DNA of 32,000 bases from Nitrososphaera viennensis EN76 (GCF_000698785.1 NZ_CP007536.1:2220001-2252000); one strand, 5' to 3'; shown: positions 5,056-20,372, counted from the first letter of the stretch. Notes: generated by a model from the sequence alone, not told the origin. Translations and numbers: made by a program.

Positions 5056-5857
5056 TCACGCTGAAAAACCGCGCATAGGTTACAAAGCTGTCTTTCTTTC
5101 TAGAAAGCTGCTTTAGGTCCCTGAACATCTTGTCATACTCGCTTTCCTTCATCACGCCATGCTGCAGGATCGCCGGCTTTAGGCTGTCTGCTATCCTCCA
5201 CCCAAGCGAACAGAGTGGCTCGTTGCCCATCATCAGGCAAGGCGCATAGCATTCTACGCTTGCATGAAGCGATTCCTCTACTGCCATCTTGTACAGCTTT
5301 CTGCCTGCAAGCGGGTCGCCCCCTGATTTTCTGACCAGAGTTACAAACGCCTCTCTGAGCGTGTCAACGCTTTCTTCGTGCGGGTGGGATAGCCACGAGT
5401 CCGGAGAATGATCAAGCTCTTGGATTATCACCGTTCCGCCGTCCCTGACCATGTCCTTCATTGCCCTGACTGCCTGCTTGGGATCCTTCAGGTGCACGAA
5501 CATGAACCTCGAAAATGCAAGATCAAACTCGCCGCCCTTTGCCTGCGATGGTGATGGTGATGGTGACAGTATGTCTTGGTGGACAAAGCGGACATTGGGA
5601 AAGGTGTTGACGGTGCGGCAGTACTGCAGATAGTTGTCATCCACGTCTATGCCTGTAACATGCCCTTCTGTGCCTACTATCTGGGCCATCAGGCGAGTGA
5701 CGGATCCAGAGCCTGAACCGACGTCCGCGCAATTCATGCCTTTTCCTATCCCTGCCTTTAACAGGGCATCTCGCGAAAAGGGCTCAAAAAATGACGCCTG
5801 GATGTCCAGCCTTTCGATCTCGCTTTTTCTGTTGCCAAGGACATAGCTGTCGGACAT
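5036..5857 (-). CDS. class I SAM-dependent methyltransferase
   Basis: Motif I is CADVGSGSGSVT, the post-I acidic residue is in GIDVD, and the typical N-terminal SEIERLDIQ is present. ATG at 5857; the track's GTG at 5893 is an alternative start. Confidence 0.85.
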   Translation of the reverse strand: MSDSYVLGNRKSEIERLDIQASFFEPFSRDALLKAGIGKGMNCADVGSGSGSVTRLMAQIVGTEGHVTGIDVDDNYLQYCRTVNTFPNVRFVHQDILSPSPSPSQAKGGEFDLAFSRFMFVHLKDPKQAVRAMKDMVRDGGTVIIQELDHSPDSWLSHPHEESVDTLREAFVTLVRKSGGDPLAGRKLYKMAVEESLHASVECYAPCLMMGNEPLCSLGWRIADSLKPAILQHGVMKESEYDKMFRDLKQLSRKKDSFVTYARFFSVIGKKSS

Positions 5858-8018: not shown

Positions 8019-8492
8019 TCAGATTGGTATCGTGACCTTCTCTATGCTGGCAGGATGCTTTTCCCTGTAGTGCCTCACAAGCTCCCTTACCGTGGCAAAC
8101 GTCATCCTGCATTCCTCGCAGCTCTCTGCCGGATTCTTGGAAACGGAAAAGAGCGGCTTTTTGCTGACGCGGATCGTCCTGTTGCCTGGAAGCGATATTG
8201 CAAGCATGCCGCCATCATCCCAGCTCTTCAGGTGCTTTTCGAATTCCTCGTATGTCGAGAGGTTGAAGCATGCCACCGGGTCGTCTTCAAAGTCGCACGC
8301 CCTCTTTTTGGTCATGTATTCCTCGTGGATCTTGCGCAGCCACCCGTCGACTACTTCGGGGTTATCTGACAGTATGTCCTGCACGATCCTCAATGTGTAC
8401 ACGGCGATCTTGTTTTCCAGCGCGTCGTTTGGAACTATGAGGTATCCTTTCAGCTTCAGGCCCAGCGAGCCATCTTCAAACGCGTGCGTCAT
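8019..8492 (-). CDS. hypothetical protein with C-terminal classical C2H2 zinc finger
   Basis: CEECRMTFATVRELVRHYREKH equals C-x2-C-x12-H-x4-H. ATG at 8492, with an AT-rich promoter region upstream. Confidence 0.75.
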   Translation of the reverse strand: MTHAFEDGSLGLKLKGYLIVPNDALENKIAVYTLRIVQDILSDNPEVVDGWLRKIHEEYMTKKRACDFEDDPVACFNLSTYEEFEKHLKSWDDGGMLAISLPGNRTIRVSKKPLFSVSKNPAESCEECRMTFATVRELVRHYREKHPASIEKVTIPI

Positions 8493-8536: not shown

Positions 8537-8689
8537 GAATAATCAAGAATATTTGTGTTTAAACAAGATAATGTAATTTAATTTGCAAAATAATAGGATT
8601 TAAGATAAATATTGTAATCTGTTTTTTCTAAAATCTATGGACGGGTTTTTTGCAATATACTTTTGTTGGCGTACAAGCCGAGTTTCAAA

Positions 8690-8869
8690 TCAACGCGTGA
8701 ATAATTTCTTTTCCAGTTTTGACATGAAAATGGGCCTGTAATTGTCAAAATCGTCGTACGCGCCACAATAGCCCGAAGCTTCTTCATCGGAATGGCATGT
8801 CGCAGACCTATCGTCGAAATGCTTGCAAATACGCGCGTATTTGCACATCCCTGGCTTCATAATGCGCAT
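8690..8869 (-). CDS. small 4-Cys protein, copy 1
   Basis: MRIMKPGMCKYARICKHFDDRSATCHSDEEASGYCGAYDDFDNYRPIFMSKLEKKLFTR is identical to copy 2. The sequence upstream of MRIM differs between copies, so the conserved start is probably at MRIM (8869) or MKPG (8860). Confidence 0.6.
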   Translation of the reverse strand: MRIMKPGMCKYARICKHFDDRSATCHSDEEASGYCGAYDDFDNYRPIFMSKLEKKLFTR

Positions 8870-8876
8870 TATGAAG
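8855..8876. promoter_or_regulatory. 22-bp perfect palindrome CTTCATAATGCGCATTATGAAG
   Basis: It is exactly self-complementary and lies at the inner edge of the left repeat. It contains ATG codons on both strands, so both divergent ORFs begin MRIMK. The copy at 15737-15758 has one mismatch (G to A). Confidence 0.6.
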
Positions 8877-9245
8877 ATGGTGTGCATCACCGGGGAAATA
8901 CCGACATCGTACGCGACAAGGGTCGAGCATTATTGCATTGACGCAAAACAAGACATAAAGGATTTTGTAGGAAACGCGGTCAAGGCCTACATCGACACCA
9001 TTGCTCCTGCAAAGTTTCCTACCGGCAATACTGCAGCGAGCGCGGTTATCGAACAGGAATCATCCAAAATTGCCAGTCTGCCCCCCGCCCCGGAGGACCA
9101 AAATAACCAAGATCAGGAGGTAGAAGCTGCAGCCCAAAAAGTCGCATGTGAGCATTGTGGTAAAAAGAATGTCTGGTCAAGGGGGACCAGAAGAGGTAAA
9201 CACAGATATCAGTGCAACGACTGCGGCAAGTATTTCAGTGTCTAG
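8862..9245 (+). CDS. hypothetical protein ending in a transposase-type zinc ribbon (possible chimeric or relic gene)
   Basis: The C-terminus CEHCGKKNVWSRGTRRGKHRYQCNDCGKYFSV resembles the N-terminal CxxC-x16-19-CxxC ribbon of archaeal IS-encoded transposases, but the ORF stops right after it. Start ATG at 8862, 8871 or 8877. Confidence 0.45.
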   Translation: MRIMKMVCITGEIPTSYATRVEHYCIDAKQDIKDFVGNAVKAYIDTIAPAKFPTGNTAASAVIEQESSKIASLPPAPEDQNNQDQEVEAAAQKVACEHCGKKNVWSRGTRRGKHRYQCNDCGKYFSV

Positions 9246-9329
9246 AGAATAATCTCTTGCTCGACCACTCATTGAAAAGGGGAAAGCAGGTTTGGGTTGA
9301 AGCCCGGTGCCTTTCACTTCATCCAAGCA

Positions 9330-10052
9330 TCAGCTGACAGCTATGACATACAGCTTGTTTTCCTGCACAGGAACGTGGGAATGTTCCTGAATACTCTTTA
9401 GCTCGACAGTTAGTCTTTGACCTATCAATTCCTCTGGGAGATCGCCAGGGATCGCTATTCTGACCTTTGTAGTCTTGATTTGTCTATCAGGCAGGGTTAT
9501 GGAGACATTATCCGGAAACGATGCCAACCTCTTAGTGTTATAGTAACACGTGGGGTCTTCGATTCCTTCAAACCGAAGTTTACTGTACCTCTGCAACAGC
9601 TCTGTGGAGGACAATGCCTGAGAAGCTTTTAGGGCGGCGGGATAGTCAGATGGCTCCAGCCTCATGACAACCTTCTCAGGGTTGAATTCTAATTCGCCTT
9701 CCTGCTGAGATGACGATGTTGGCGATATCCTTTGAAATTCAACCGATTTTTCTTGCTTATCCTTTACTCCTCCTTTTATGTACACCATTTTTATCGTGAC
9801 ATCTACTGACCAGCCTCTTTGACCAAGCGCCGTCAATATACATCGCCTACGGAAAGATTTGTCGATGAAATGCCTTTCAGACGGAGCTAGATATATTTCG
9901 GAAGATTTACCATATCCTCCAAATTCTCTGCCAAAGAATTCGGCTTCGTCCGTTCGAGACATCTCTTTAAGATAGGAAGAGACATCTCGTAAATAATAGC
10001 TTTGGTGGCGAATTTCATGTTTCTTTAAAGTACTCTCATTGCTTGCCCACAT
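9330..10052 (-). CDS. hypothetical protein (240 aa)
   Basis: A long ORF with an ATG start, 36 nt downstream of the BNR gene on the same strand, so probably co-transcribed. No motif recognised. Confidence 0.7.
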   Translation of the reverse strand: MWASNESTLKKHEIRHQSYYLRDVSSYLKEMSRTDEAEFFGREFGGYGKSSEIYLAPSERHFIDKSFRRRCILTALGQRGWSVDVTIKMVYIKGGVKDKQEKSVEFQRISPTSSSQQEGELEFNPEKVVMRLEPSDYPAALKASQALSSTELLQRYSKLRFEGIEDPTCYYNTKRLASFPDNVSITLPDRQIKTTKVRIAIPGDLPEELIGQRLTVELKSIQEHSHVPVQENKLYVIAVS

Positions 10053-10088
10053 GGTCGCTTGTAAAAGGTGGCCAAATGCCCAATTTTC

Positions 10089-13000
10089 TCACCTGACATT
10101 CTTGTCATATCCGACTGTCAAGACCAAATTCACCGTTGTCACCACTGTTGACGCTTCGACGCTACAGGGCGCTGAGACATTAGTGCAGTATGAATAAGTT
10201 ACAACAAATTGTATTGGCTCATCAGTTAGTCCGAAGAGATTTTCTGCAGGAACGTTATTGAATGTAAATATCTTGTCGAGATTTCCGCCAGAGGTTGCGT
10301 CGCCGCCTGTCCATTGAAATTCCTCGAAATAGGGCACCCCTACGCCATAGATGCTGATAGTCCCACCCAGAAAATAATGCGTCTGACCAAGGTACAGGAC
10401 AGTTTCCGGGTATCTCGTGAAGATGCTAGTATCGACGCACTTGATAGGTATCAATCTAGAGGCCATACAGCCATGAAGATCCCATCTGCCTTTGGTGTTG
10501 TTATTCACTGGATCAGGTGTTTCTAGGAAAAAAGTATAACCTTCCAATGGCTTCGGATTGATATGTCTGTCGCAGTGGAAGTCCTTACTGACATGGAAGT
10601 TACAGGTCATTGGGTTTGAAAGGCTGAATTGGCCATCCGAGCGCAGTGTATAGGGCGAGGAATTGCCTTCTCTCAAGAGGATTCCAGTCGACATAGTTGT
10701 TGCAATTTTGGCCGTAAGCTGATCAGGAGATTGGAAGATTGTTCCATATGTAGTGTTAGGTGTCTGCCAGCCAGTTGTTGCATTTCTCAAGGTTTCGTAC
10801 AGATTGCCGCCGCTGAGGGTGAAGATGTGCACGTTATCGTCTGGAGTTATCGAAATGGCAGGAATCGAATGATCGAGAGTACTGTCTGCGGTCTCTACTC
10901 CGGCGAATGTACCATTGCCGTAAAATTTGGCAACCTTTAACGTCCCATGGTTTCCGCTTGTCAGATAGGCAACGAAAGCCATCCTGCTTGAATTGGACGA
11001 GAAACCATCCATCGTATCTGACGCAATCTGCTTTGTGGTATTGCTTGACAAACAGGTAAAACATCCGCTCCAGAAATCACCCCAAGGATTGGTCCCGGTT
11101 CCGTTGTATACTTGCCATCCTAGATGATCCCAACCGTATGCTGTGTATACCTTCAACATTTTACCCGAGTCCAATCTTGTCAATGTTACCGGAATCTCGT
11201 TTGCGCCGGTCATTCCAGTGAATTGTGTTGGCGACGGGCTAGGTATCCAGCTCCACCCTCCATCCTTTGACCAGTAGTCCTGCATGTACCAGTTGCCACC
11301 CGTCTTGAAAGTGTACGTCACGAAAATAGTCCCGTTCGTACTCGATGCGGCAGCAGTTGTCGCACAGATTCCCCCTGGAAGACATGAATTGTCAGTCGTT
11401 TCAGTTCTTAATGCTCTCGTGCTAAAGAGGGAGAGCGATTTGTCATGAATCACGAATGTCTTTGCATAAAGCGTATTGTCAGAGTGATCCTCTTGGACAT
11501 AGACCAAAGTTATCCTCTCAGTAGAGTTGTAGTGCGTGTAGGCGATTGTCCACTTACGACTGTCAGAGCCAAGAATCCCCGTACCTGTCGATGTCGCGCT
11601 TGCAGACCAGGTGCGGCCTAGGTCTTTTGACGTTTTGTATACTATGTTAAATCCGCCATCATAAAATGCGAACTGGGTATGGTTGCTTGACTCTACCAGC
11701 CTTCTCTCACCTGCAAATGATTCGGACGAGAGTGGCGAATTGAAAATAAGGCTATCCTGCATGACCGTTCCAGGTTCAAGCAGCCCAAACACTACGTTGT
11801 AGGGCGAACCAGTGCTCTCCCGCCACATTCCTGCCAGCGCCCCATCCAAAACAATAGCTCCTGAAAGCTGGTCAAGTGATGTAAAAGTGGTTCCAAACGG
11901 ATTGAATGGAGCCTCCCATACTCCTGCGATTTTCCTTGTAACATACACCTTGCCGTTGGATATTGAAAGGATGTTTAGATCACCGTTCGGGTAGGAAAAG
12001 ATGGATGGTAGATTATGCCTGAGCGTACTATCCACGGTTTCAATTGTTGAAAATGTGCCATTTGCGAAGATTCTTGCAATCTTTACGATCCCTCCGGCAC
12101 TTGCCGTAACATTGGTGTATGTGACCACTCCCTGCCCGGTAGCGTCAACAGTGGAGGAAATCTGCTTGTAAGTGTTTGAAGCCATTCCGGTTCCCGTAAC
12201 CGTTTGAACAGTACCCCAAGAGGTACCGTTAAAAATCCTGTAATACAAATCCGCGCTGTCATACTTCAAGTACGCAAACAGCATCTTGGTAGAATCTAGC
12301 GGAGTTAGCGTCAGCGCAGGCCGATAGATGCTTACACCTGTGACTTCAGCCAATGAATCAGACCAGGTAGCTCCTCCATTGGTTGATTTTTTGATTCCGT
12401 ACGAGAAATATGTCGCCCCAGACGCTACCCACTTGAATGCAGCATAAATAGTTCCATTTCCATCGACGGCGGTTGCTACTCCCACGCAGGACCCTGATGC
12501 AGAAATGCAGCCGCTGTTAACTGTGGTGCTACCGATCTGTACCGGTGAGCCCCAGCTTATCGATGCGGATGGCCACGTTACATTGCCTCTTATAGAATAG
12601 AAGTTTGTATTGTTTCCAACAACATGCCAGTAAATCACGTTTATGCGCTCTCCACCGCTTTGGATGTGATGCACTACCGTCCATCTGTGCTTATCAGAAG
12701 CGACAGTGCCTGTTCCAAGCGAAAAAGCTGAACTCCAGGTATGCCCTCTGTCGTCCGATGTCCTGTAGACAATGTTTGAACTGTCATAGTAGAAGGCGTT
12801 TAGTCGAGTGTTGTTTGTAGTTACTATCCTTGTTTGGCCCTCAAAGTAGTTGCCGATTTCAGGAGAGATGAAGGTGTTGGTTCCGCCCACAACGTATGGA
12901 TCGATAAGGAATGGTTTTCCGCCGCCAGCACCTACAGGGATCGTTAGTAAAGATGTCTCGACGTCAAAATCAACTTGATACCCGGAGTCGATAGCATCAG

Positions 13001-13976
13001 ACCAGTCAAGTTCCAACCCTTCAGGCTCATATTCATTATTCCCCGAGACTATACCTTCCACGCCTTGTACGTCAAAGTCAATTTTGCTATCGGTCGTAGG
13101 TGAGGAATGAATTACCCGGAGTTTGTCGTCCTGGACAATAGAGTTATTGTCGCCATCATCTATTGCTAGCTTTATTGAGGTAGCATTTGCGCTTGTGCCC
13201 GCGATAAAGAACTCGTACCTATCTTCATAGCCTCTTGAATTTTGTGCAGGTCTCCAAAAGATGTCGTACTGCTTTTCTGCTCCAATGACTCTTTGGTCCA
13301 CAACGCTACTGTTCTGCCATAGCGAAAACGCGCCTTCAGACGATGGTATTGAGAGAAGATACCTGTAACCTCTGCTGTCTTGGACTTCAGTAGAGCCGTC
13401 AGTATTCCATGTTATGGTCATGGTCACTTCCGAGTCGGTCATCCCCTCAAACATCAGAGTCGGATAAGTAACAGACCTTGTTATGCTGCTGCCATTGGAT
13501 TGGACAAGCGGCTCGCCAGATATCTTCACCAAACTACTGCTAGAAGTCTCGGTTAGATTTGCCATTGGCAAGATAGTCTCTTCAGGTTCATTTTCAGTAG
13601 ATGTCGAATTGGTATCTGTCGAGGAAGTCGAATTGCCAGTTTCTTCACCGGAGGTCTGGGTCGTATTGCCAACATGGGTGCTGTCAGAAGTAGTAGCGTC
13701 ACTAGGCTCCTGGCTTGAAGAATCTGATATCGTATTATTATTTCCAACCTGCTCCCCAGTTTGGCTGCGAGTATCGGTGCTGTTTGAAGACGATGATGAG
13801 GACGAGGAAGAAGAGGCAGCAGATTCACCTGATGAAGTTGAATTCTGTGCGCTGGCGTTCATGGCGACATTAGAAACAAGGGATAGCAACAAAACAACAA
13901 TCAGAGCAAACGAAAGTGACAGTTTCAGGGCGGCCGTTGTGCGATCCGGTGTTCCTCCACTTCCTCCACGAGGCAT
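10089..13976 (-). CDS. large secreted or surface protein with Ser/Thr-rich stalk and two tandem BNR/Asp-box (sialidase-like beta-propeller) modules
   Basis: N-terminal hydrophobic signal/anchor (LSLSFALIVVLLLSLVSNVAMNASA) followed by a ~90-aa S/T/N-rich region that includes S10. Four Asp-boxes (SxDxGxTW) are present: SDDRGHTW (12735-12758), STNGGATW (12364-12387), SKDLGRTW (11607-11630) and SKDGGWSW (11247-11270). There are many N-x-S/T sequons. Confidence 0.9.
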   Translation of the reverse strand: MPRGGSGGTPDRTTAALKLSLSFALIVVLLLSLVSNVAMNASAQNSTSSGESAASSSSSSSSSSNSTDTRSQTGEQVGNNNTISDSSSQEPSDATTSDSTHVGNTTQTSGEETGNSTSSTDTNSTSTENEPEETILPMANLTETSSSSLVKISGEPLVQSNGSSITRSVTYPTLMFEGMTDSEVTMTITWNTDGSTEVQDSRGYRYLLSIPSSEGAFSLWQNSSVVDQRVIGAEKQYDIFWRPAQNSRGYEDRYEFFIAGTSANATSIKLAIDDGDNNSIVQDDKLRVIHSSPTTDSKIDFDVQGVEGIVSGNNEYEPEGLELDWSDAIDSGYQVDFDVETSLLTIPVGAGGGKPFLIDPYVVGGTNTFISPEIGNYFEGQTRIVTTNNTRLNAFYYDSSNIVYRTSDDRGHTWSSAFSLGTGTVASDKHRWTVVHHIQSGGERINVIYWHVVGNNTNFYSIRGNVTWPSASISWGSPVQIGSTTVNSGCISASGSCVGVATAVDGNGTIYAAFKWVASGATYFSYGIKKSTNGGATWSDSLAEVTGVSIYRPALTLTPLDSTKMLFAYLKYDSADLYYRIFNGTSWGTVQTVTGTGMASNTYKQISSTVDATGQGVVTYTNVTASAGGIVKIARIFANGTFSTIETVDSTLRHNLPSIFSYPNGDLNILSISNGKVYVTRKIAGVWEAPFNPFGTTFTSLDQLSGAIVLDGALAGMWRESTGSPYNVVFGLLEPGTVMQDSLIFNSPLSSESFAGERRLVESSNHTQFAFYDGGFNIVYKTSKDLGRTWSASATSTGTGILGSDSRKWTIAYTHYNSTERITLVYVQEDHSDNTLYAKTFVIHDKSLSLFSTRALRTETTDNSCLPGGICATTAAASSTNGTIFVTYTFKTGGNWYMQDYWSKDGGWSWIPSPSPTQFTGMTGANEIPVTLTRLDSGKMLKVYTAYGWDHLGWQVYNGTGTNPWGDFWSGCFTCLSSNTTKQIASDTMDGFSSNSSRMAFVAYLTSGNHGTLKVAKFYGNGTFAGVETADSTLDHSIPAISITPDDNVHIFTLSGGNLYETLRNATTGWQTPNTTYGTIFQSPDQLTAKIATTMSTGILLREGNSSPYTLRSDGQFSLSNPMTCNFHVSKDFHCDRHINPKPLEGYTFFLETPDPVNNNTKGRWDLHGCMASRLIPIKCVDTSIFTRYPETVLYLGQTHYFLGGTISIYGVGVPYFEEFQWTGGDATSGGNLDKIFTFNNVPAENLFGLTDEPIQFVVTYSYCTNVSAPCSVEASTVVTTVNLVLTVGYDKNVR

Positions 13977-14024
13977 ATGTCGCCTAGTAATGAAGCTTCT
14001 CTAATATTGTTAGCTAAGATTTTG

Positions 14025-14043
14025 TACGTACGCGAGGTACGTA
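14025..14043. promoter_or_regulatory. inverted repeat TACGTAC-GCGAG-GTACGTA between the wHTH gene and the BNR gene
   Basis: The 7-nt arms are perfect. It lies 49-67 nt upstream of the BNR ATG (13976), just beyond a TAATATT TATA-like box at 14003-14009, and 10 nt downstream of the wHTH stop. Confidence 0.3.
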
Positions 14044-14052
14044 TTATTTAAC

Positions 14053-14322
14053 TCACGCGCACAACCAGAACTGTAACTGGCTCACTTCGACAACTCTTCT
14101 TGCAAAGGTGGTGCCCCGTTCTGTAAGGATGACGTACCTTCTTTTTCCCTTAGTTCTAATTTTGACAAATCCTCTCTGCTCCAGACGCGCTAAAAGTACA
14201 TTGCATCTCTTGTGGTTTGTCCTTGACAGCATCGCTAGATTCGTCACTGTAATGCCATCATTTTCTATCAACACCTTCATGACTCTGGCAAGGTAGCCGA
14301 TGCGGGTCTCGGGTGAAGACAT
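14053..14322 (-). CDS. small winged-helix DNA-binding protein
   Basis: ITVTNLAMLSRTNHKRCNVLLARLEQRGFVKIRTKGKRRYVILTERG is an HTH plus wing pattern. ATG at 14322 lies ~26 nt downstream of ATTATATAAAG (14343-14353), consistent with a leaderless archaeal transcript. The track's TTG at 14343 lies inside that TATA box. Confidence 0.75.
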   Translation of the reverse strand: MSSPETRIGYLARVMKVLIENDGITVTNLAMLSRTNHKRCNVLLARLEQRGFVKIRTKGKRRYVILTERGTTFARRVVEVSQLQFWLCA

Positions 14323-14570
14323 GGCGTCCGAGCTGTGGAACAATTATATAAAGAATTCTCATATAGGAGAATGTAACACTTATTTTCTTATTTTGGAGGA
14401 CCATTTTCTGCAATTTTGGTGATTAATGAAAGCTCAAATTCGCTAATGTGTATTTCAGCATCTAAAATCAGGGGCTAGAAGGAATTGGAGTTGACAGACA
14501 GTGAACGGGCTGCAGAGTTTTACAAAATCCTCAAGAGGCAGGAATATCGAACGAAAAGACTGCGAGGGCA

Positions 14571-14816
14571 TTGACCCGCCTATTTCAGTACATGATTCAG
14601 GACAGGGCCATACCCCTGTCGAAGGAAGAGTTGGCGATTTGGAGAAGCCTTAACGTCATCGACCGGGAAGGGTATGTCCTAATGGACGACCGCTACGAGA
14701 TAAACAAGGGGGTATTGCTTTCAGAAGTCTATGAAGGCGGATTGTACAGGATCATCGGCGACGATGGAAGAATCCTATATGTGTCACCAACCAGAAAGAA
14801 AAAGCCGGATGATTGA
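14571..14816 (+). CDS. hypothetical protein (74-81 aa)
   Basis: The ORF has a TTG start at 14571 or an ATG at 14592 (MIQDRAIPLSKEEL...). No motif recognised. Confidence 0.4.
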   Translation: MTRLFQYMIQDRAIPLSKEELAIWRSLNVIDREGYVLMDDRYEINKGVLLSEVYEGGLYRIIGDDGRILYVSPTRKKKPDD

Positions 14817-14874
14817 TTTCCTAATGCTTGTTAAATCCTTGGCCGGTAGTCGTTGCCTCGTTTCCATAGTGGGC

Positions 14875-15530
14875 TTACGTCAATCCTATTCTCGAACTCT
14901 TTCTACGTTTGTGATAATAGTATGCCACGGACGCCCCTCCGCCTATGATTACCACTGCTGCTACAACTAAGGCCGTGGTAGTAGCGGAGAAGCCGTCAGG
15001 TTGCAAGACTCCTTCTACTAGGACGGTAGTAGCGCGTGCATCACATGCCTGGCATTGAGGCGAACTGGCGTCTATTGTGATGGCATTTCCTCCTAATTCT
15101 TGGATTACTGCAGAAGGTTGTATCTGAAAGGTGCCTTGCTTTAGGAAGCGTATGCCAAATTCATAGGGTATCGATTCGCCAGCCTTTAGATTAAAAGGAC
15201 CTTCCAAAGCCGTCCTCGAAACCACAATCCAGTCGTCACCTTCCAAACCGTAGATTTCAGAGACACTGACACGACCATATCCCTAGCGACCAGATTTGCG
15301 ACCGAACCTTTGAGTGTGACAATTCCACCAGCATCTATCGTTACTGCGGCTGGCTCTATATTCTGAAATTGAAGAATGGATGATATGCCGCCCCCTCCTT
15401 CTTCCTGGGCAAATGAATACTCGAATCCTGCTACTAGCATAGCGGCAAACAATGACACAACCAACGGGGCTTTGGTCAATCCAAATATCTCCCCGTATCT
15501 TGCAAAAAACCACGAAATACTCTTTTTCAT
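14875..15530 (-). pseudogene. frameshifted secreted or membrane-anchored surface protein
   Basis: Track ORFs 15186..15530 (signal-peptide-like MKKSISWFFARYGEIFGLTKAPLVVSLFAAMLVAGFEYSFA) and 14875..15246 (beta-rich domain plus C-terminal TM ALVVAAVVIIGGGASVAYYY and basic tail HKRRK) overlap in different frames. The downstream frame reads protein-like (GYGRVSVSEIYGLEGDDW) right up to a TAG at 15283-15285, so a 1-nt frameshift near 15275-15285 joins them. Confidence 0.65.
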
Positions 15531-15561
15531 ATAAATTCACTGTGCGAAATTGAAATAAAAA

Positions 15562-15762
15562 GAGTTTCAAATCAACGCGTGAATAATTTCTTTTCCAGTT
15601 TTGACATGAAAATGGGCCTGTAATTGTCAAAATCGTCGTACGCGCCACAATAGCCCGAAGCTTCTTCATCGGAATGGCATGTCGCAGACCTATCGTCGAA
15701 ATGCTTGCAAATACGCGCGTATTTGCACATCCCTGGCTTCATAATGCGCATTATAAAGCTGG
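15562..15762. repeat. right copy of ~201-bp direct repeat (partner at 8680..8880)
   Basis: See the left copy. The first ~193 nt are identical. Confidence 0.95.
15572..15751 (-). CDS. small 4-Cys protein, copy 2
   Basis: Identical to copy 1 from MRIMKPG onward. The track ORF extends to 15793 (MILTMSLLSAASF...) in copy-specific sequence. It lies downstream of the Hcp-like gene on the same strand. Confidence 0.6.
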   Translation of the reverse strand: MRIMKPGMCKYARICKHFDDRSATCHSDEEASGYCGAYDDFDNYRPIFMSKLEKKLFTR

Positions 15763-15907
15763 CAGCGGATAACAATGACATGGTCAAAATCATGCAGAAG
15801 CGTGGGAATTAATCCCATGTTGCACAGCATCATGAAAACCTGTGTCCGATAGATATAGAAGCAAGTTGTTATGGCATGGATGAATAAAATATAACAAAAA
15901 GGAGGGA

Positions 15908-15923
15908 AAAGGCCTAGGCCTTT
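15908..15923 (-). terminator. hairpin-plus-T-tract terminator-like element at the Hcp-like gene stop
   Basis: The 16-bp perfect palindrome AAAGGCCTAGGCCTTT embeds the TAG stop (15914-15916). On the minus strand it is followed 7 nt later by TTTTT (the reverse complement of 15881-15907 reads tccctcctttttgttatattttattca). Confidence 0.45.
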
Positions 15924-16552
15924 CTGTTCGCCTTTATGTCCCAGCCTCCTGTCACCGGCGCGCCAAGCGAGCCGTCAGGGTTGACAGGATAGTACGTGAA
16001 CTCTATCTTGGCAAAGTTGAGCGAGAAGCTGTCCGTGGGGACTGCTCCTGAACCGCCTCCTTGCTGGTACGACGAGACGAGCACGTCCGTCAGCTTGATC
16101 TGGAGGAACTGCTGGCCCTTTTTGCCGCTCACCTCGCCTGTGAGCACGACCTGCTTGATGTGCTCGCCTGTAGCCGTTGCAAGCATCAGCTTTGGAGACG
16201 ACTTGTCGATATTTTTGGTAAAACTGATGTCCTGGAACGACACCTTTCCCGCGCCTCCACCGCCGCCCGTGCTTGGCGAGCCTGTGTTGGATGCGCCCCA
16301 GCTGAACGATTCGACGTTTATCTCGCCTTTGTGCTTGTCATTTGTTGACTCTCCTTCAATGCCGTCTATCTTTAAAAAGTAGTCGACCGTGGCAGCATCG
16401 GCAGAAGGCATCCCGAGCAGCGCCTCGCTGGCCGGGAGCTTTTGCGATGAAAAAGAAGGTGCCACTGCGACGTACCCTGCAAGAATCGACGCAACAACTG
16501 CAACCGCTACCGCTACTACTGCTGTCATCTGCATCTTGCCTAGGTTTGGCAT
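15914..16552 (-). CDS. hcp: Hcp (type VI secretion tube protein) family homolog with N-terminal hydrophobic extension
   Basis: From residue ~56 the sequence reads DYFLKIDGIEGESTNDKHKGEINVESFSWG...GGGGGAGKVSFQDISFTKNIDKSSPKLMLATATGEHI...LTDVLVSSYQ...SLNFAKIEFTYYP...GWDIKAN. This is collinear with bacterial Hcp1 as I remember it. Residues 9-31 (MTAVVAVAVAVVASILAGYVAVA) look like a signal peptide or anchor. A TATA-like TAGATATA lies at 16572-16579. The internal Met48 (ATG at 16411) is an alternative start that would give a canonical Hcp N-terminus. Confidence 0.9.
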   Translation of the reverse strand: MPNLGKMQMTAVVAVAVAVVASILAGYVAVAPSFSSQKLPASEALLGMPSADAATVDYFLKIDGIEGESTNDKHKGEINVESFSWGASNTGSPSTGGGGGAGKVSFQDISFTKNIDKSSPKLMLATATGEHIKQVVLTGEVSGKKGQQFLQIKLTDVLVSSYQQGGGSGAVPTDSFSLNFAKIEFTYYPVNPDGSLGAPVTGGWDIKANRKA

Positions 16553-16642
16553 GGCGACGGATGCTGGAGAATAGATATACCTTTTCTGAAGCTCGGCTCT
16601 ATAAAATAGCTAAAAAGAAGGAGGGGAGTAGGGGAAGAAGCC

Positions 16643-18904
16643 CTACTTGGGCAGCTCTATCTTTTCTGCTGTTGCCGCGATCCTCGGGATGGACCCAAGG
16701 TCGACGCACGGCACCTGCTCCAGCGCGACCGCCGCGGTGTCGGACGCGCCATAGCCCGTTATGATGCCAAAGCCGTTAGTGTGCTTGGGGTACACCCTCA
16801 GCTCTATCGCAAACGAGCACTTTTGGTGCGCGCCGAGCATCTCCCCAAACGTCTTTTCGGCGGCCTTGGCGTTTGCCGCGTTGAGCGGGCTTGGGATCGG
16901 CGGAACCGTCGAGGGGGCGTTTGTCGTGCCGGTCTCTATCGTCCCGCTTGTGTCGTTGAGCCCGCGCACGAACCACAGGTTGTAGCTGTGCATGAACTTG
17001 TTGACGTGGAACGCATAGAACCGCACAGTGAACTTGTCGCCGGAGCACCCTGTCAAAAAGAGGCAGCTTCCCTCCACAGGCGCGTCGTTCTTGCGCAGCG
17101 CGACAATGTCCCCGTAGCAGGCGACGTTGTCTGCGTGGAAAATATGGACAAGGGCGGCATAGTTTACCGCGTCGGTGGCAGTCTCTGTCGACCAGCGCCT
17201 GAAAGTGAACGGCTTGTCGATCCCTGCTCCCATTGCGCCTGCGGGCTTGATCCTGTTTCCTGCCGCATCAAACACCTCGACTATCACAAGGTGCTTGCCA
17301 TTGTCGTGCAGGGTCGTGTTCCACGACTGGTGGAACTGGAACCAGAGCCACCCGCCGTCCGGCGCGTCGGACTCGTACGGGATGAGGTACAGCCCAGAGT
17401 TACTGCCGACCGCGTTTGGCCCGAGCGCTACTGCCTCCGTCTGCAATTGCGTCCCGACCCACTTCCACCGGCTCCATGCTACAGGATCTGTCAGCACCTG
17501 CGGCACGCCGTCAGGGTCGCCGGAAGAGTTTGCCTTTACCACGCTTACCCTGTAGTATTTCGCGCCTGTGCCCTTCATGCCTTCGTGGAACTTGAGCCTG
17601 AAGCTGAGCGTCTGGCCCCACGGCTGGCCTGTGTAGTTGTTGTTGACAAGGCCGTCGCCGGGGTTTGCCGTCAAGACGCCAAGCTCGCTGTCCTGCACGG
17701 GGCTGACAAGCTTCCAGCTGGGGATGTAGCCGATGTTTTCCAGCATCACAAAGTTCGTGCCCGGGTCGGGGACGTCGCTTCCCGGGTTGCAGGCGCGCCC
17801 CTTCCATGTGCGCAGGTGCGCGTCGTCGGACGCAGTAAAGTAGTCGTTCGTGGTTGAGCCGTCATAGATGTACACCCACTGGTTGTCCTGCCACTGCCTG
17901 ACCTTGTAATAGTAGGTTACCCTGCATCCTGCTCTTACAAACGGCCGCCAGTAGCAAAAGCTGAACTCGCCGTCCTCGTTCACGGGCGTCTCGCCGACCT
18001 TTCTCGTGCTGCATGTGCAAAAGATCGGGTAGAGGTAATAGTGCGCGTCAATGTACGCAAGCCTGTCCTGTTGCGGAAGCGACATCAGCATGTGGTAGTC
18101 TTCTGCCAGCTTTTCAGGCGGGTTGCCTAGCGGTACTTTGGCGCCTGTTGCGCGCAAGAGGCTGGCGGCCTTTTCCACCTGCCTGATTGGCACGGGATCA
18201 GGGCCGGGCCCCGGCCAAGGACCTATGGGCCCGGGATCAGGGTCCGGGATTGGAGGGACGCGCTTTATCAAATCTTTGAGCCTGTCAAGTATGTCGTCGA
18301 TGTCAAAGGGCGGGCGCAGCCTGCAGCAGCATGTCTTTTCATATACTTCGACAACGGCGTTGCATATTGGCGCGCATATGGTAGGCAGCGTCAACGACGG
18401 CGCGATTGCTTTTGATATTTCTGGCCTGAGCGTCAGGGTGTCCGTAAACGTCGTCGACTTTGCAAGAATCTTTGTCGCTGTCTTTGCAACGGCAATGTCT
18501 CCAAGCAGCCATGGCCTTGGCCTGCACCTGTGTACGTCGCCGTGCACACAAACTATGGGCAGAATCCAGTCGCGCCATTTGGGCGTGATAGAGATCACGC
18601 CCGTTCTGGACCACTCGGCGACCTTCTCCCTTGGCCTGAAGGTGACAAGCATTTCCCTTGTCACTTCTTTTTCGTCAATGTCCGGGCCAAAGCCGTAGCC
18701 GCTTCCCTCCTTGATGTTGCGGGCTAGCTCTGAAAGCTGGACCTTGTTTCCCTGGATGGGCCCGACTTTTCTGATAACGCCCTTCTCTACTGCAAAAAGG
18801 GCTACGCGTGGTGCCTGGTCTTTCTCGGTGATTCCGAGGAACCTTAGTTCTAGAATTTTGTCGTTATTGCTGTTGTTGGTAGCAGGTATCCTTGAGGCTG
18901 CCAT
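16643..18904 (-). CDS. large Cys- and Pro-rich hypothetical protein (753 aa)
   Basis: A long GC-rich ORF. ATG at 18904 (MAASRIPATNN...) is preceded by an AT-rich region with TTTATTAAAG at 18924-18933. The track's TTG at 18994 lies in that AT-rich DNA. It contains a CCC triplet, a PPIPDPDPGPIGPWPGPGPDPVPI linker and a beta-rich C-terminal half. No family recognised. Confidence 0.85.
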   Translation of the reverse strand: MAASRIPATNNSNNDKILELRFLGITEKDQAPRVALFAVEKGVIRKVGPIQGNKVQLSELARNIKEGSGYGFGPDIDEKEVTREMLVTFRPREKVAEWSRTGVISITPKWRDWILPIVCVHGDVHRCRPRPWLLGDIAVAKTATKILAKSTTFTDTLTLRPEISKAIAPSLTLPTICAPICNAVVEVYEKTCCCRLRPPFDIDDILDRLKDLIKRVPPIPDPDPGPIGPWPGPGPDPVPIRQVEKAASLLRATGAKVPLGNPPEKLAEDYHMLMSLPQQDRLAYIDAHYYLYPIFCTCSTRKVGETPVNEDGEFSFCYWRPFVRAGCRVTYYYKVRQWQDNQWVYIYDGSTTNDYFTASDDAHLRTWKGRACNPGSDVPDPGTNFVMLENIGYIPSWKLVSPVQDSELGVLTANPGDGLVNNNYTGQPWGQTLSFRLKFHEGMKGTGAKYYRVSVVKANSSGDPDGVPQVLTDPVAWSRWKWVGTQLQTEAVALGPNAVGSNSGLYLIPYESDAPDGGWLWFQFHQSWNTTLHDNGKHLVIVEVFDAAGNRIKPAGAMGAGIDKPFTFRRWSTETATDAVNYAALVHIFHADNVACYGDIVALRKNDAPVEGSCLFLTGCSGDKFTVRFYAFHVNKFMHSYNLWFVRGLNDTSGTIETGTTNAPSTVPPIPSPLNAANAKAAEKTFGEMLGAHQKCSFAIELRVYPKHTNGFGIITGYGASDTAAVALEQVPCVDLGSIPRIAATAEKIELPK

Positions 18905-19161
18905 GTCCTCTTGGAAGATCCCCTTTATTAAAGAATAGTAGATGTAGTCTCTAGTAAATAGTATCTTGCTATGCAAGTACCCGAGATAAGACAATCATGA
19001 CCATAGATCACTTTTAAGTTCTGTAGAATCCTTGGATGTTAGAATCGAGTGTTGACTTTCTGGTGGTTCCTAATTGCGTGAGTAATGTCCCCTCTAGTGG
19101 ACATTTTGACATAGAGTTTGCCTCCATTAGATATAATAGTAACAATCTTCTACTCTCGGGC

Positions 19162-19671
19162 ATGCTAGATGGTAAAGACGACACTTTACAAGTAGCAAAC
19201 CATCGTACCAAGGGCCTGGTTATAGGAGCATTGACGATCGCATTGCTTCTTGCAATACCTGCCCACGCCGCGATTCAGCAGGCTGATGCCATCAGTGTTT
19301 CCTCCGACACCACTCTGCCTTCTGGAGGATCAGACTACTGTACATCGAGTACGTCCGACCAAACGATACTTTCCGTGACTGTGGCAAACAGTAACGTCAA
19401 GCTTGATGTCGCAACGCTGGCAGGATACGTCGCGACCCAAGGCGGTAACAATTATGGAAACTTGGAATTAAAACTTAAGACCGCCGGAGTTCAGGTGGAC
19501 TGGGCGAACATTGAAGCACAGAGTTCCGACCTGAGAGACAGAACAGCTGCATTATCATGGTCTGTAACCACCTCGAGTGCTCAAACAGTAACAGCTCGCA
19601 ATGGCGACATAGGTAGTTCAGACACAGTCTGTGTAATCACAGGTACGGCTGAACTTTTCGTGACATACTAG
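19162..19671 (+). CDS. secreted hypothetical protein
   Basis: ATG at 19162 lies ~28 nt downstream of ATATAATA (19131-19138). The signal peptide is HRTKGLVIGALTIALLLAIPAHAA, and the mature part is S/T-rich and beta-like. The track start at 19036 is less likely. Confidence 0.7.
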   Translation: MLDGKDDTLQVANHRTKGLVIGALTIALLLAIPAHAAIQQADAISVSSDTTLPSGGSDYCTSSTSDQTILSVTVANSNVKLDVATLAGYVATQGGNNYGNLELKLKTAGVQVDWANIEAQSSDLRDRTAALSWSVTTSSAQTVTARNGDIGSSDTVCVITGTAELFVTY

Positions 19672-19685
19672 GGGATGATGGAAAA

Positions 19686-20369
19686 ATGAAAGAGAATATC
19701 GAGAAATTCAAAGGTAAGAAAGCATACGCAATAACAGCAGTGGTAGGAATCGCGGTGATCGCAAGCATCCTAATCCTTGCAACAACGAGTATCCCAATCT
19801 CGCAAGTGAATGCCGTACCACCGGCCCCGGACACTGTTCAGACCAATACCGTCGAAGCTCAATTATCACCATCAGAGCTAACGGGTAGAATGACTCTCTA
19901 CATACTTCCACTGGAGTACGGCCAGAATTATCAATCGGGTAGAATAGTTAACATCGTCAACAGTCTAATACCGAACATGGCGGCATCTCACTACACAGAC
20001 CTAGGATTTTCGCTGCGAGGACAATACGCTGATGAGCCAGTCGTGTTGACCGAACAGAACATTCCAGAAGACCTGCGGCAGAATTTCAAGCCTGGTGATG
20101 CTGTTAAAATGACTGTAATAAAGCACCCTGCCGATACCGTGAAAGTGTACGTCGACCCAGATGTCAGGAAGCCAGACGGCACACCTGTAACCGTTGACGA
20201 CATCAGCCCAGATTGGCAATTCGGGAACGGTATTACATGCTGTGGATTTTCACTGAAGGATGGCACAGATGTAAGTGCGGTGTTCTTTGTGGTCGATCAG
20301 GCTTATGATGCACAAGTCATGAAACAACTCGATGCAATCAAAACTACAGCCGCAAGTATGACATACTAA
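19686..20369 (+). CDS. membrane-anchored or secreted hypothetical protein
   Basis: N-terminal basic region plus TM (KKAYAITAVVGIAVIASILILATT). It starts 14 nt after the preceding gene, so it is probably co-transcribed. Confidence 0.75.
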   Translation: MKENIEKFKGKKAYAITAVVGIAVIASILILATTSIPISQVNAVPPAPDTVQTNTVEAQLSPSELTGRMTLYILPLEYGQNYQSGRIVNIVNSLIPNMAASHYTDLGFSLRGQYADEPVVLTEQNIPEDLRQNFKPGDAVKMTVIKHPADTVKVYVDPDVRKPDGTPVTVDDISPDWQFGNGITCCGFSLKDGTDVSAVFFVVDQAYDAQVMKQLDAIKTTAASMTY

Positions 20370-20372
20370 GCC

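Follow-up and report, generated by a model that had tools for sequence, protein, structure and literature searches.

The repeat pair and the genes that it brackets

Within the stretch of Nitrososphaera viennensis EN76 DNA analysed here (32 kb, referred to as the window), two direct repeats bracket a 6.7-kb segment that lies between a gene for a C2H2-like zinc-finger protein and a gene for an Hcp-like protein. The features of the locus, in window coordinates, are as follows.

8019..8492, minus strand: native left neighbour, C2H2-like zinc-finger protein, 157 aa; in relatives, the next gene downstream of the single small gene
8680..8872, minus strand: repeat copy A (R_A), 193 nt, identical to 15562-15754
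8690..8869, minus strand: copy A ORF, 59 aa if started at an internal ATG and 66 aa if started at GTG 8890
8855..8876, no strand: perfect palindrome of 22 nt, CTTCATAATGCGCATTATGAAG, lying across the 5' edge of R_A
8873..15561, no strand: inserted cassette X, 6,689 bp, GC 0.466
8877..9245, plus strand: ZnR, 122 aa, with a C-terminal Zn-ribbon of the type that is N-terminal in IS1/IS1595 transposases
9330..10052, minus strand: orf240, 240 aa; homologue P0006
10089..13976, minus strand: BNR-like secreted protein, 1295 aa, with Asp-box repeats in the translation
14053..14343, minus strand: winged-helix (wHTH) transcription regulator, directly upstream of the BNR gene; Pfam DUF6293_C, F-93 WHD, TrmB
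14485..14816, plus strand: orf81/105, 76% identity to L096:2286-2603
14875..15530, minus strand: orf114 and orf123, probably one gene interrupted by a frameshift; start 31 nt from R_B
15562..15754, minus strand: repeat copy B (R_B), 193 nt, within the intact small gene
15572..15781, minus strand: intact gene of the small Cys-rich protein, 69 aa when read from the conserved ATG; longest ORF to 15793
15914..16552, minus strand: native right neighbour, Hcp-like protein (PF05638)

The two repeat copies are identical over exactly 193 nt (8680-8872 and 15562-15754) and then diverge, as the first-pass annotation of this DNA had claimed; when the comparison is extended to 201 nt, the identity is 99%, with 2 mismatches (8873 and 8877). 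The repeat starts are 6,882 nt apart, and the pair is the sole long repeat of the window. An exact match of this length within 32 kb cannot have arisen by chance. The lower GC content that had been claimed for the DNA between the repeats is real but modest (46.6% versus 51-52%): the segment from 8873 to 15561 has a GC fraction of 0.466, compared with 0.512 for the left flank, 0.518 for the right flank and 0.44 for the repeat, and other patches of the window are equal or lower (0.466 at 19.0-20.9 kb and 0.373 at 26.6-27.8 kb).

The repeat-cassette-repeat (R-X-R) arrangement is present in three complete assemblies, namely the window's own 2.528-Mb contig, CP103305.1 and CP104300.1 (100% identity over all compared sequence for CP103305 and CP104300), and in three SPAdes contigs from ERZ1760263 and ERZ1760268 (L108 and L110 at 100% identity, L098 at 99.98%). 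Since these complete assemblies and SPAdes contigs agree, the structure is not an assembly artefact, and the misassembly that had been named as a possible source of the repeat pair is excluded. A misjoin or a falsely duplicated repeat is barely conceivable: a MEGAHIT contig (L101/L124) does connect the flanks through a single repeat copy, but the same R-X-R recurs in the complete assemblies and SPAdes contigs named above, which are 99.98-100% identical. This sole empty-site contig, one of 23 contigs that carry the Hcp gene, comes from a mock-community metagenome of which N. viennensis is a member (PRJEB19901), and a replicate of that community gave a different topology (L111). Loss of junction k-mers at k=127 would explain it if its coverage there was low, as we suppose. 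Public assemblies also contain contigs that represent an R+X cycle (L111-L113), with lengths of 6912 (6882+30) and 7009 (6882+127). Both the cycle contigs and the empty-site contig are expected as de Bruijn graph paths of the integrated form too.

The small protein encoded at the repeats has the Cys motif C-x5-C-x9-CH-x8-C. Its syntenic orthologues P0002-P0004 share 55-72% identity with it across the whole alignment, and BLASTP gives 80, 79 and 64% against the 59-aa core. The orthologues of the gene differ by 16-18%, with synonymous-only codon differences about as numerous as amino-acid-changing ones. The wider family forms 64 clusters; no member was seen on a mobile element, and neither the small gene nor the repeat has a viral, plasmid or phage match. 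R_A covers the final 60 codons of the gene with the stop codon and extends 10 nt beyond it. R_B extends upstream into native 5' codons and a conserved promoter-like region, and the region upstream of it (15755-15850) can be aligned with L001, L004 and L081. At copy A, the Cys-rich domain is whole and the N-terminus is MMHTIF, encoded by cassette DNA; both the hydrophobic N-terminus (LLLSAA) and the upstream region, which are conserved, are absent. In a six-way alignment, the native upstream side is kept by copy B and the native downstream side by copy A. Copy B is the working gene, with the native promoter and native N-terminus followed by the repeat. Copy A is a displaced, promoter-less and 5'-truncated duplicate beside the native downstream genes, because the native promoter and N-terminus are missing from it. 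The earlier claim that each repeat carries a complete small gene therefore applies to copy B only.

Within the cassette, ZnR scores just under the cutoff of NCBIfam NF050000 (E 6.7e-6, 26.6 bits against a cutoff of 28). It lacks a catalytic domain, its architecture is conserved in the soil contig L096, and the same Zn-ribbon terminates unrelated proteins on viral contigs; ZnR is a stand-alone protein and not a transposase. Its conserved start is ATG 8877 (MV.ITGEIP, common to the L096 homologue). The single homologue found for orf240 is P0006, which is 57% identical and lies among unrelated genes; a weak remnant is present downstream of the BNR gene in contig L095. The 1295-aa protein begins with a signal-like segment followed by a Ser/Thr-rich linker and has four Asp-box-like motifs of the SxDxGxTW type. 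Pfam and NCBIfam scans of it returned no match at E<=0.01; its homologues P0008-P0014 are 38-75% identical, and some of them have a weak precomputed PF13088 match. The wHTH gene product matches a PHROG transcriptional regulator, and the wHTH-BNR pair is a conserved module that recurs in L095, L096 and L097. As read from the sequence, orf81 has a 1-nt frameshift near 14533-14535 relative to its 105-aa L096 homologue. The products of orf114 and orf123 have a signal-like N-terminus and a C-terminal transmembrane anchor, respectively, and the two ORFs overlap at 15186-15246 in different frames; they are probably parts of a single protein of the membrane or surface, interrupted by a frameshift, for which no homologue was found in the related loci.

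The gene list of the first-pass annotation stands in its content, with four amendments: ZnR is not chimeric, the part that crosses into the repeat being an over-extension of the ORF; the 240-aa product is not a complete orphan; the 81-aa ORF is itself frameshifted; and only copy B of the small gene is complete. The annotation was right about the missing integrase. None of the cassette's ORFs matched an integrase or a transposase in Pfam, NCBIfam or PHROG scans, and the window's non-proviral part contains no integrase. The ORFs fill the cassette and leave no room for a remnant. The cassette has no recombinase, and it is decaying, with two frameshifted genes. There is no tRNA gene or Rfam family in or beside it, and there are no terminal inverted repeats at 8873 and 15561. 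A transposon of the DDE or casposon type was rejected because terminal inverted repeats and a transposase are absent and the duplication is 193 bp rather than short.

The site in related genomes

Four related genomes (L001, L004, L081 from N. evergladensis SR1, and L082) each have one small gene between the neighbours. The gene order at this empty site is Hcp (or DUF72), one small gene, the C2H2 gene, PhoU_div and PHO4; the immediate upstream neighbour of the small gene is the Hcp-like gene in L001, L004 and L081 and DUF72 in L082. Positions 705-2620 of L001 match 8872-6965 of the window and positions 3-886 match 16477-15570, and homology to the relatives breaks at the repeat edges. In a further relative, L005, both the small gene and the cassette are missing. 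The cassette is absent from all related genomes examined, and its genes have no counterpart at the locus there. As a separate observation, the large surface-protein genes found between Hcp and C2H2 are not the same from one Nitrososphaera species to another (L002 and L003).

These comparisons place the small gene ancestrally between the Hcp-like gene and the C2H2/PhoU_div/PHO4 genes, and they place the insertion point ~10 codons into the 69-codon gene. Given that the relatives have one small gene at this site and that their homology ends at the repeat edges, the segment is a lineage-specific insertion with target duplication. A one-copy empty locus had been set beforehand as the test of an insertion and was found in these four genomes, and no relative with two diverged copies, which would have pointed to an old duplication, was seen. 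The insertion is real, recent and integrase-less, and it is of a broadly known kind.

Relatives of the cassette and its junctions

Relatives of ZnR, wHTH, BNR and orf81 occur on contigs of soil Nitrososphaerales. The GC content of these contigs (L095-L097) is 46-47.5%, like that of the cassette. L096 has orf105 (76% identity), wHTH (89%), BNR (62%) and ZnR (77% for the protein, 83.5% for the DNA) in the same order as the cassette, and it also carries TIR, DUF5131 and helicase genes. L095 has a BNR homologue with 75% identity that lies 1.6 kb from a 460-aa tyrosine integrase, and L097 has methylase, wHTH and BNR genes. The cassette block is related to the cargo of these mobile-element-like contigs, and its GC content and the mobile-element-like contexts of its gene relatives support a foreign-like character. 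Neither the small gene nor the repeat is present in the small sample of cassette relatives (L095, L096 and L097).

The left end of the cassette is 4 nt upstream of the conserved ZnR ATG, and DNA homology to L096 stops at 8874. The sequence upstream of ZnR in L096 is unrelated to the repeat, and the cassette does not have this L096-type region, in which 12 codons might belong to the N-terminus. AAAG and TGG occur in both of the sequences compared at the left junction, the native TATAAAGCTGG and that of the element family, GCAAAGATGG; the 4-nt microhomology (AAAG) is typical of illegitimate joining. The G at 8873 is unlike both the native sequence and L096. At the right junction (15561|15562), no microhomology is visible. 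The palindrome at the edge of R_A has 8-bp arms around TGCGCA, and its R_B counterpart (15737-15758) matches at 21 of 22 positions. A second perfect 22-nt palindrome is present in both copies (8824-8845 and 15706-15727). The first palindrome is absent from the orthologues, and the second is partly present there.

Possible routes of entry

We tentatively favour, at slightly less than an even chance, a one-step, integrase-independent, target-duplicating insertion over Campbell integration of a circle that carried the repeat. A fragment of an L096-like element would have been joined by illegitimate, microhomology-assisted joining in a single event. By one route, a replication template switch would have left the chromosome at the palindrome near 8855-8876, entered the element and returned to the chromosome 193 nt behind the exit point; by another, a break staggered by 193 nt would have been filled in. 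Either would make the two copies identical by construction, so that the perfect 193-nt identity needs no extra assumption, in a gene whose orthologues differ by 16-18%. The absence of the repeat from L095-L097, the missing L096-type region upstream of ZnR, the shared AAAG and TGG, the lack of a recombinase or inverted repeats and the palindrome at the edge are likewise in favour of one-step insertion. Several points weigh against it. To our knowledge, target duplications of ~200 bp by template switching or staggered breaks are undocumented in archaea and rare in prokaryotes, and one crossover with a circle is the textbook origin of a long perfect R-X-R. The end of the repeat 10 nt past the stop codon looks "designed", like elements that carry the 3' part of their target gene, and the 5'-edge palindrome might just as well be a tyrosine recombinase core site. 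The right junction without visible microhomology, and the G at 8873 that matches neither the native sequence nor L096, also count against one-step insertion. In its most specific form, recombinase-free entry by palindrome-seeded template switch or staggered-break repair, copying 6.7 kb from a co-resident mobile element and recopying 193 bp of the target, is unlikely; on an alternative reading, the palindromic 5' end of the small gene would serve a trans-acting recombinase as its landing pad.

Campbell-type integration is quite possible, although we doubt it. On this model, the circle already contained 193 bp of the host's small gene, which it would have either picked up from the host at an earlier time or developed into an attachment site that rebuilds the gene, and it would have undergone one crossover with the chromosomal gene. 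The crossover would have relied on the host's homologous recombination or on a tyrosine recombinase, supplied in trans, that used the palindromic core near 8855-8876; the integrase module would have been lost or never there, as in a cis-mobilisable element. By established archaeal genetics, 193 bp is ample homology for a crossover, which counts for this reading. Perfect repeats in an R-X-R arrangement together with one-copy empty sites fit it as well, and the repeat end 10 nt past the stop means that a working gene is rebuilt exactly. The palindrome around the 5' edge resembles a core site, and its outer arm is not the same in the two copies, as in hybrid attL/attR, and the nearest relative of the BNR cassette adjoins a tyrosine integrase. 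The R+X cycle contigs and the one empty-site contig in public assemblies also count here; the same paths are expected as graph artefacts of the integrated form, and 1 of the 23 Hcp contigs shows the empty site. Further against Campbell integration, the repeat is on no cassette relative and the small-gene family on no mobile element, the cassette and the window's non-proviral part have no integrase, and the left end removes the L096-type ZnR upstream region. The copy on the element must equal that of the host at 100%, yet orthologues differ by 16-18%, and two illegitimate joins plus a crossover are needed compared with two joins alone. Thaumarchaeal att sites are, moreover, short, with a median of 17 bp and only 7 of 68 exceeding 25 bp (PMC6563490). 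The earlier reading of the locus holds for an R-X-R insertion with empty sites and no integrase, whereas its Campbell step is not demonstrated, given the relatives without the repeat and the microhomology at the left end. An old duplication kept identical by gene conversion, with an ancestral two-copy state, intervening segment included, lost from the relatives by recombination between the repeats, is very improbable. Direct repeats delete precisely, so single-copy relatives could be deletion products, and gene conversion can keep repeats identical. This reading nevertheless needs several independent precise losses (L001, L004, L081 and L082 have a single gene and L005 has none), and no relative has a counterpart of a cassette gene at the locus. 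The GC content and relatives of the cassette point instead to foreign, element-associated DNA, and copy A has no native 5' end and hence is not a full paralogue.

The catalogued elements of N. viennensis EN76 are NitVie-E1 to E5 and Nvie-Pro1, with sizes of 5.4 kb for NitVie-E1 and 8.9 kb for NitVie-E2 (Krupovic et al. 2019, PMC6563490). The cassette is not in this catalogue (PMC6563490), from which no helper that uses the small-gene site is known in N. viennensis. Among the features by which integrated elements are recognized (Krupovic 2019), the cassette has the repeats and the empty site and lacks the integrase and the short att site. It resembles the cryptic integrated elements of Thaumarchaeota in size range, direct repeats, a protein-gene target, a sister-species empty site, hypothetical cargo and occurrence in the same organism. 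Unlike those elements, it has no integrase, its repeats are 193 bp rather than a median of 17 bp, and it lies near the 5' end of its target, whereas theirs are 3'-distal, in a tRNA gene or intergenic.

Phage 21 and e14 duplicate ~165 bp of the 3' part of icd in E. coli; an integrase of their own is encoded beside the att site, and their version of the gene departs slightly from the host version. Like them, the cassette lies inside a protein gene whose 3' part is present twice, one copy completing a working gene and the other displaced at the far end; unlike them, it lacks an integrase, its two gene copies match perfectly and the element relatives have no gene copy. Copy B is intact, as in a gene-reconstituting insertion, but target duplication gives the same result. 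Cis-mobilisable elements (CIMEs), known from Streptococcus ICE families, have att-like repeats and no recombination or transfer genes, and they share att with a co-resident helper ICE. The cassette is likewise a repeat-flanked island without recombination or transfer genes, but its repeats are a host gene and not an att shared between elements. Laboratory pop-in integrants in archaea have the same homology-insert-homology topology and predicted pop-out instability, whereas the cassette is natural and shows no sign of a homology-carrying circle. Insertions with flanking duplication by microhomology-mediated template switching (MMBIR/FoSTeS) are described in bacteria, yeast and humans, and we know of none documented in archaea. 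Templated insertion, target duplication, junction microhomology and a breakpoint palindrome are common to these and to the proposed one-step insertion; in contrast, the microhomology is found at only one of the two cassette junctions.

The cassette presumably cannot move by itself, and homologous recombination of the RadA type, acting on the two 193-bp repeats, would remove it exactly and bring back the ancestral single-copy locus. If recombinase-free entry is true, the locus would be a natural, datable, MMBIR-like capture of mobile-element cargo in an archaeon, and such entry could explain the varied surface-protein genes at the Hcp/C2H2 site in L002 and L003.

A direct repeat around a low-GC cassette

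Comparison of the window with itself yielded only one pair of long repeats. The 193 nt at 8680-8872 (copy A) recur exactly at 15562-15754 (copy B), with a start-to-start distance of 6,882 nt, and the two copies are still 99% identical when the match is extended to 201 nt. The cassette between them (8873-15561) is 6,689 bp long and has a GC content of 46.6%, compared to 51.2% in the left flank and 51.8% in the right flank. These values bear out the first-pass annotation, which had described near-perfect direct repeats of approximately 200 bp around a lower-GC segment. Read on the minus strand, the repeat comprises the last 60 codons of a small Cys-rich gene, its stop codon, and 10 nt more.

The same layout is present in two further complete chromosomes, CP103305.1 (2,521,342 bp) and CP104300.1 (2,522,325 bp), which match the window at 100% identity across 18-20 kb including both repeats, and in three SPAdes metagenome contigs (L098, L108, and L110). 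This agreement indicates that the arrangement is real, and the assembly artefact that the first-pass annotation had allowed for is ruled out by these sequences, to the point that we regard it as vanishingly improbable. Contigs that are 100% identical to the window were also obtained from the mock community PRJEB19901, of which N. viennensis is a member. A 3-nt indel at approximately 3654-5186 separates several N. viennensis datasets (L098, L101, L102, and L103) from the window, CP103305, and CP104300; this region holds alpha/beta-hydrolase and methyltransferase genes, for which gene calls vary among 294, 295, 334, and 335 aa.

Genes of the cassette (window positions, strand, description)
8877-9245, plus strand: ZnR, a 122-aa protein with a C-terminal Zn-ribbon of the IS1/IS1595 N-terminal type, just below cutoff
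9330-10052, minus strand: orf240
10089-13976, minus strand: BNR gene, a 1295-aa Asp-box protein with a signal-like N-terminus and a Ser/Thr-rich linker
14053-14343, minus strand: wHTH, a winged-helix transcription regulator
14485-14816, plus strand: orf81/105, with a 1-nt frameshift relative to a 105-aa homologue
14875-15530, minus strand: membrane protein gene, divided between orf123 and orf114 by a frameshift

Protein family scans of the cassette ORFs found no integrase, in keeping with the first-pass annotation, and no transposase, and an inverted-repeat search found no terminal inverted repeats. Scans of the window for tRNA genes and Rfam families returned nothing. The zinc-ribbon ORF that had been called chimeric turned out to be over-extended; its true start is the ATG at 8877, and the resulting N-terminus, MV.ITGEIP, is shared with the homologue on L096, a soil Nitrososphaerales contig. 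We rejected ZnR as a truncated transposase or viral marker because its IMG/VR matches involve only the generic C-terminal Zn-ribbon on unrelated viral proteins. A composite transposon was rejected because the repeat is not an IS. The context of the orf240 homologue (L083) is unrelated to the cassette. A 17-nt inverted repeat (16/17 matching) occupies 8644-8660 and 15495-15511, at most 70 nt from the 3' edges of both repeat copies, with one arm in native DNA outside copy A and the other in the cassette, within the first codons of orf114.

The ancestral locus and its small Cys-rich gene

Related loci were those fetched around homologues of the Hcp-like protein at 15914-16552, the native right neighbour of the cassette, and the closest named relatives were Nitrososphaera MAGs and N. 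evergladensis SR1. In one locus (L001, approximately 85% DNA identity), positions 3-886 align to window 16477-15570 and positions 705-2620 to window 8872-6965. This locus carries a single small gene between both window flanks, and homology stops at the repeat edges. A second locus (L004, 82% DNA identity) has the same empty-site layout. The gene order is Hcp, small gene NTE_00868, 157-aa protein, PhoU_div, and PHO4 in the complete genome of N. evergladensis SR1 (L081), and DUF72, small gene, 157-aa protein, PhoU_div, and PHO4 in L082. No counterparts of the cassette proteins are present in any of these four loci, each of which is thus an example of the empty locus with one repeat copy that the first-pass annotation had proposed to look for. 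Two diverged copies, which that annotation held to be the mark of an old duplication, were not observed in the loci compared, and we consider an ancient duplication kept uniform by gene conversion to be very unlikely.

A six-way alignment shows that copy B has kept the native upstream region and copy A the native downstream region. Upstream of copy B lies a conserved ACATGGGATTA(A/T)T motif, which probably holds the TATA box, followed by a conserved ATG. The empty sites, together with this division of the native flanks between the two copies, indicate that the segment is a lineage-specific insertion accompanied by a target duplication.

The small-protein orthologues show 55-72% identity across the complete alignment (BLASTP against the 59-aa core gives 80, 79, and 64%), and DNA identity is 82-84% for the nearest two. 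Codons with synonymous-only differences are about as numerous as those with amino-acid-changing ones (e.g., 13 versus 9). Judged from its sequence, the small gene is a real gene under purifying selection. Its invariant residues define the motif C-x5-C-x9-CH-x8-C, and a profile search gathered at least 64 clusters (P0015-P0077) of 42-100-aa proteins with the same motif and the family core C[KR][YF]A..C[KR].[YF]...TC...EA..YCG.[YF]D.F.N[FY]. The family has no match in Pfam or NCBIfam and nothing significant in a PDB profile search, and the AlphaFold model of the protein is poor (pLDDT 51). The hydrophobic N-terminus LLLSAA... is conserved in all orthologues and in copy B; that of copy A is MMHTIF, translated from cassette DNA. 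Therefore, the earlier statement that each repeat carries a complete gene holds for copy B (minus strand, 15572-15781), but copy A is a 5'-truncated duplicate that lacks a promoter.

Other relatives differ at the same position. Directly after Hcp, where N. viennensis has its cassette, two other Nitrososphaera MAG loci, L002 (10634-19882) and L003 (10637-20605), each have a single giant ORF on the opposite strand (3,082 aa and >3,322 aa, respectively; no Pfam match). The L002 ORF occupies the gap up to a C2H2 gene, and the L003 ORF continues as far as the locus reaches. In L005, both the small gene and an insert are missing. The Hcp/C2H2 site is apparently a hot spot of large and variable genes. 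The Hcp-like protein itself (T6SS_HCP, E 8.5e-41), here found in an archaeon, has 345 relatives in the genome collection, most of them bacterial, and always adjoins a conserved 754-783-aa protein without a family match (window 15914-18994; L003, L005, and L081).

Origin of the cassette and route of insertion

Homologues of the BNR-like protein range from 38 to 75% identity. The closest is found on L095, a soil Nitrososphaerales contig with a wHTH remnant, BNR (75%), and an orf240 remnant. A further 1.6 kb along, this contig encodes a tyrosine recombinase of 460 aa (PF00589, E 4e-17), beyond which lie DUF790 and an XPB-like helicase. L096 carries orf105 (76%), wHTH (89%), BNR (62%), other genes, and ZnR (77% protein and 83.5% DNA identity), with the shared genes arranged and oriented as they are in the window, as well as TIR, DUF5131, and helicase genes. 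A third soil contig, L097, has a DNA methylase, wHTH, and BNR. The GC content of the three contigs (46-47.5%) is similar to that of the cassette. These contexts and base compositions indicate that a wHTH-BNR module with ZnR is a recurrent cargo of mobile-element-like regions in soil Nitrososphaerales. None of the three contigs contains the small gene or repeat-like sequence. IMG/VR scans with BNR and wHTH found no relatives, neither PLSDB plasmids nor INPHARED phages gave a blastn match to the entire cassette, and a BNR-profile metagenome scan found only distant BNR proteins (39-44% identity) without other cassette genes. Just past orf105 on L096, at the opposite end of the wHTH-BNR-ZnR block, positions 2175-2224 hold a degenerate fragment of approximately 51 nt from the 3' end of ZnR, which is 78% identical to the window's ZnR and less so to L096's own. 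It is too diverged from the latter to support its being an att duplicate of an L096 element, and may be the scar of an older tandem or recombined copy of the module.

At the left junction, a three-way alignment shows that copy A is native through ...CATTAT and L096-like from (A/G)AAGATGGTG onward. At the switch point, AAAG and TGG are common to the native sequence (TATAAAGCTGG) and the element family (GCAAAGATGG). The L096 sequence upstream of this point, which includes 12 possible N-terminal codons and the promoter region, is unrelated to the repeat and missing from the window. By this alignment, the cassette begins on the left at a breakpoint with microhomology, 4 nt ahead of a gene start, and this edge does not resemble a terminus that has evolved as part of an element. 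On the right, the junction (15561|15562) falls 10 nt past the stop codon and 31 nt before orf114 begins, and no microhomology is visible there in the window sequence. A 22-nt palindrome, CTTCATAATGCGCATTATGAAG, spans the start-codon region and the repeat edge; it is perfect in copy A (8855-8876) and matches at 21/22 positions in copy B (15737-15758). Another 22-nt palindrome, TGCAAATACGCGCGTATTTGCA, lies 9 nt from the first and is perfect in both copies (8824-8845 and 15706-15727); the pair sits toward the 5' end of the small gene. In the six-way alignment both are specific to N. viennensis, with at most partial versions in the orthologues and the 8855-8876 palindrome absent from them; the 22-nt palindrome is also absent from IMG/VR.

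The observations are thus an insertion, a 193-bp target duplication, a foreign origin, and no recombinase. We tentatively favor a one-step, integrase-independent insertion that duplicated its target. Such an insertion could have arisen if a template switch at the palindrome led out of the chromosome to a co-resident element and a later one led back to the chromosome 193 nt behind the exit point; alternatively, a 193-nt staggered break might have been filled in and then closed by end joining. Several observations favor this reading: the repeat is missing from the relatives of the cassette, the breakpoint on the left has microhomology and cuts off the region upstream of ZnR, and perfect identity of the copies would be automatic, whereas orthologues differ by 16-18%. 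It would also need two joins only, compared to two joins plus a crossover for Campbell integration.

Campbell integration would require a circle on which the repeat was already present. This circle would have recombined with the chromosome, either homologously or by means of a trans-acting recombinase at the palindromic core, and the repeat would have acted like the gene-reconstituting att site of phage 21 or e14 in icd. This is the textbook way to long perfect repeats, and we hold it to be a possible origin, somewhat less likely than the one-step insertion. It is consistent with a repeat that stops neatly 10 nt past the stop codon, with a palindrome laid out like a core site whose outer arm differs between copies, and with the integrase adjoining the closest cassette relative. 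A retro-copy of the small mRNA was rejected because there is no terminator at +10 and the repeat begins inside conserved coding sequence, as was a link to the neighboring provirus-like region, since the intervening genes are conserved host genes in relatives. Under either one-step insertion or Campbell integration, the cassette is now immobile on its own, and homologous recombination between the repeats should delete it and restore the ancestral locus.

Excision-like contigs, known elements, and other features of the window

Some public contigs resemble products of such a deletion. A MEGAHIT contig (k=127) from the mock community, L101/L124, consists exactly of flank 1, one repeat, and flank 2 at 100% identity. 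L111 is 7,009 nt long (6,882 + 127), and L112 and L113 are each 6,912 nt long (6,882 + 30), with L113 being a rotated cycle across the cassette end, the repeat, and the cassette start. We rejected the circle-like L111-L113 and the empty-site L101 as evidence of excision because a loop in a de Bruijn graph would look the same with the integrated form. In addition, replicates of the mock community differ in topology, and of the 23 contigs that carry Hcp just one has the empty site; we regard the excision-like contigs as non-diagnostic. Some Logan contigs have ends that resemble transcript boundaries and might derive from RNA-seq runs.

N. viennensis is a model soil ammonia-oxidising archaeon, and to our knowledge there are still no genetic tools for it. 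The 193-bp direct repeat should delete the cassette at a measurable rate; it would then be a natural 'pop-out' substrate and might be one cause of heterogeneous cell surfaces in cultures. The mobile elements catalogued for strain EN76 are NitVie-E1 to E5 and Nvie-Pro1, and thaumarchaeal att sites have a median length of 17 bp and lie in tRNA genes, intergenic regions, or 3'-distal gene parts (PMC6563490). None of the catalogued N. viennensis elements matches the cassette in size, att site, or target, and the NitVie-E2 att site, TGTTGTTTAA, is missing from the window, indicating that the cassette is not a catalogued element. It resembles catalogued thaumarchaeal elements in its flanking repeats, empty-site evidence, and cargo type, but differs from them in lacking an integrase and in att length and position. 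The cassette belongs to neither the transposon nor the casposon families; in behavior, it comes closest to a gene-reconstituting insertion of the icd type or to a 'pop-in' integrant that has become fixed. Thus, this 6.7-kb islet with surface-protein and regulator genes is genuine, recent, integrase-less, and previously uncatalogued; the lack of both an integrase and a tRNA target probably caused it to be missed, and the 193-bp duplication of a micro-protein gene around it is unusually long. The islet illustrates that surface-protein cargo of Nitrososphaerales mobile elements can be fixed in the chromosome without a recombinase gene. Its main points are a possibly recombinase-independent insertion route and a predicted precise-deletion instability in a model archaeon; in other respects, the islet is a small genomic island of the ordinary sort.

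A second N. viennensis-specific insertion (19021-20864; 1.84 kb, GC 0.466) has imperfect terminal inverted repeats (44 nt at 75%), of which the outer 22 nt or so, CTRTAGAATCCTTGGRTGTTA, are nearly perfect, and is flanked by an imperfect direct repeat of approximately 14 nt (GATCACTTTTAAGT and GATCTTGTTTAAAT). Its genes are orf211 (weak DUF5649 match) and orf227, with no transposase among them. In N. evergladensis (L081), L003, and L005, DUF72 directly adjoins the 754-783-aa gene. Provirus-like genes at 22977-29523 include a 506-aa ORF, a 470-aa Mu-type portal (PF06074), and a 576-aa ORF, and by its coordinates this region is probably Nvie-Pro1 of Krupovic 2019. Two further Nitrososphaera MAGs (L003 and L005) retain parts of it in synteny, with DNA identities of 70-77%, which suggests that it is old or domesticated rather than recent. 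Within it, 26617-27309 encodes a 230-aa RelA/SpoT-domain protein (PF04607, E 4e-20), a small alarmone synthetase or toxSAS-like protein, in a sharply AT-rich patch (GC 0.36-0.39); this coding region overlaps the end of the portal gene.
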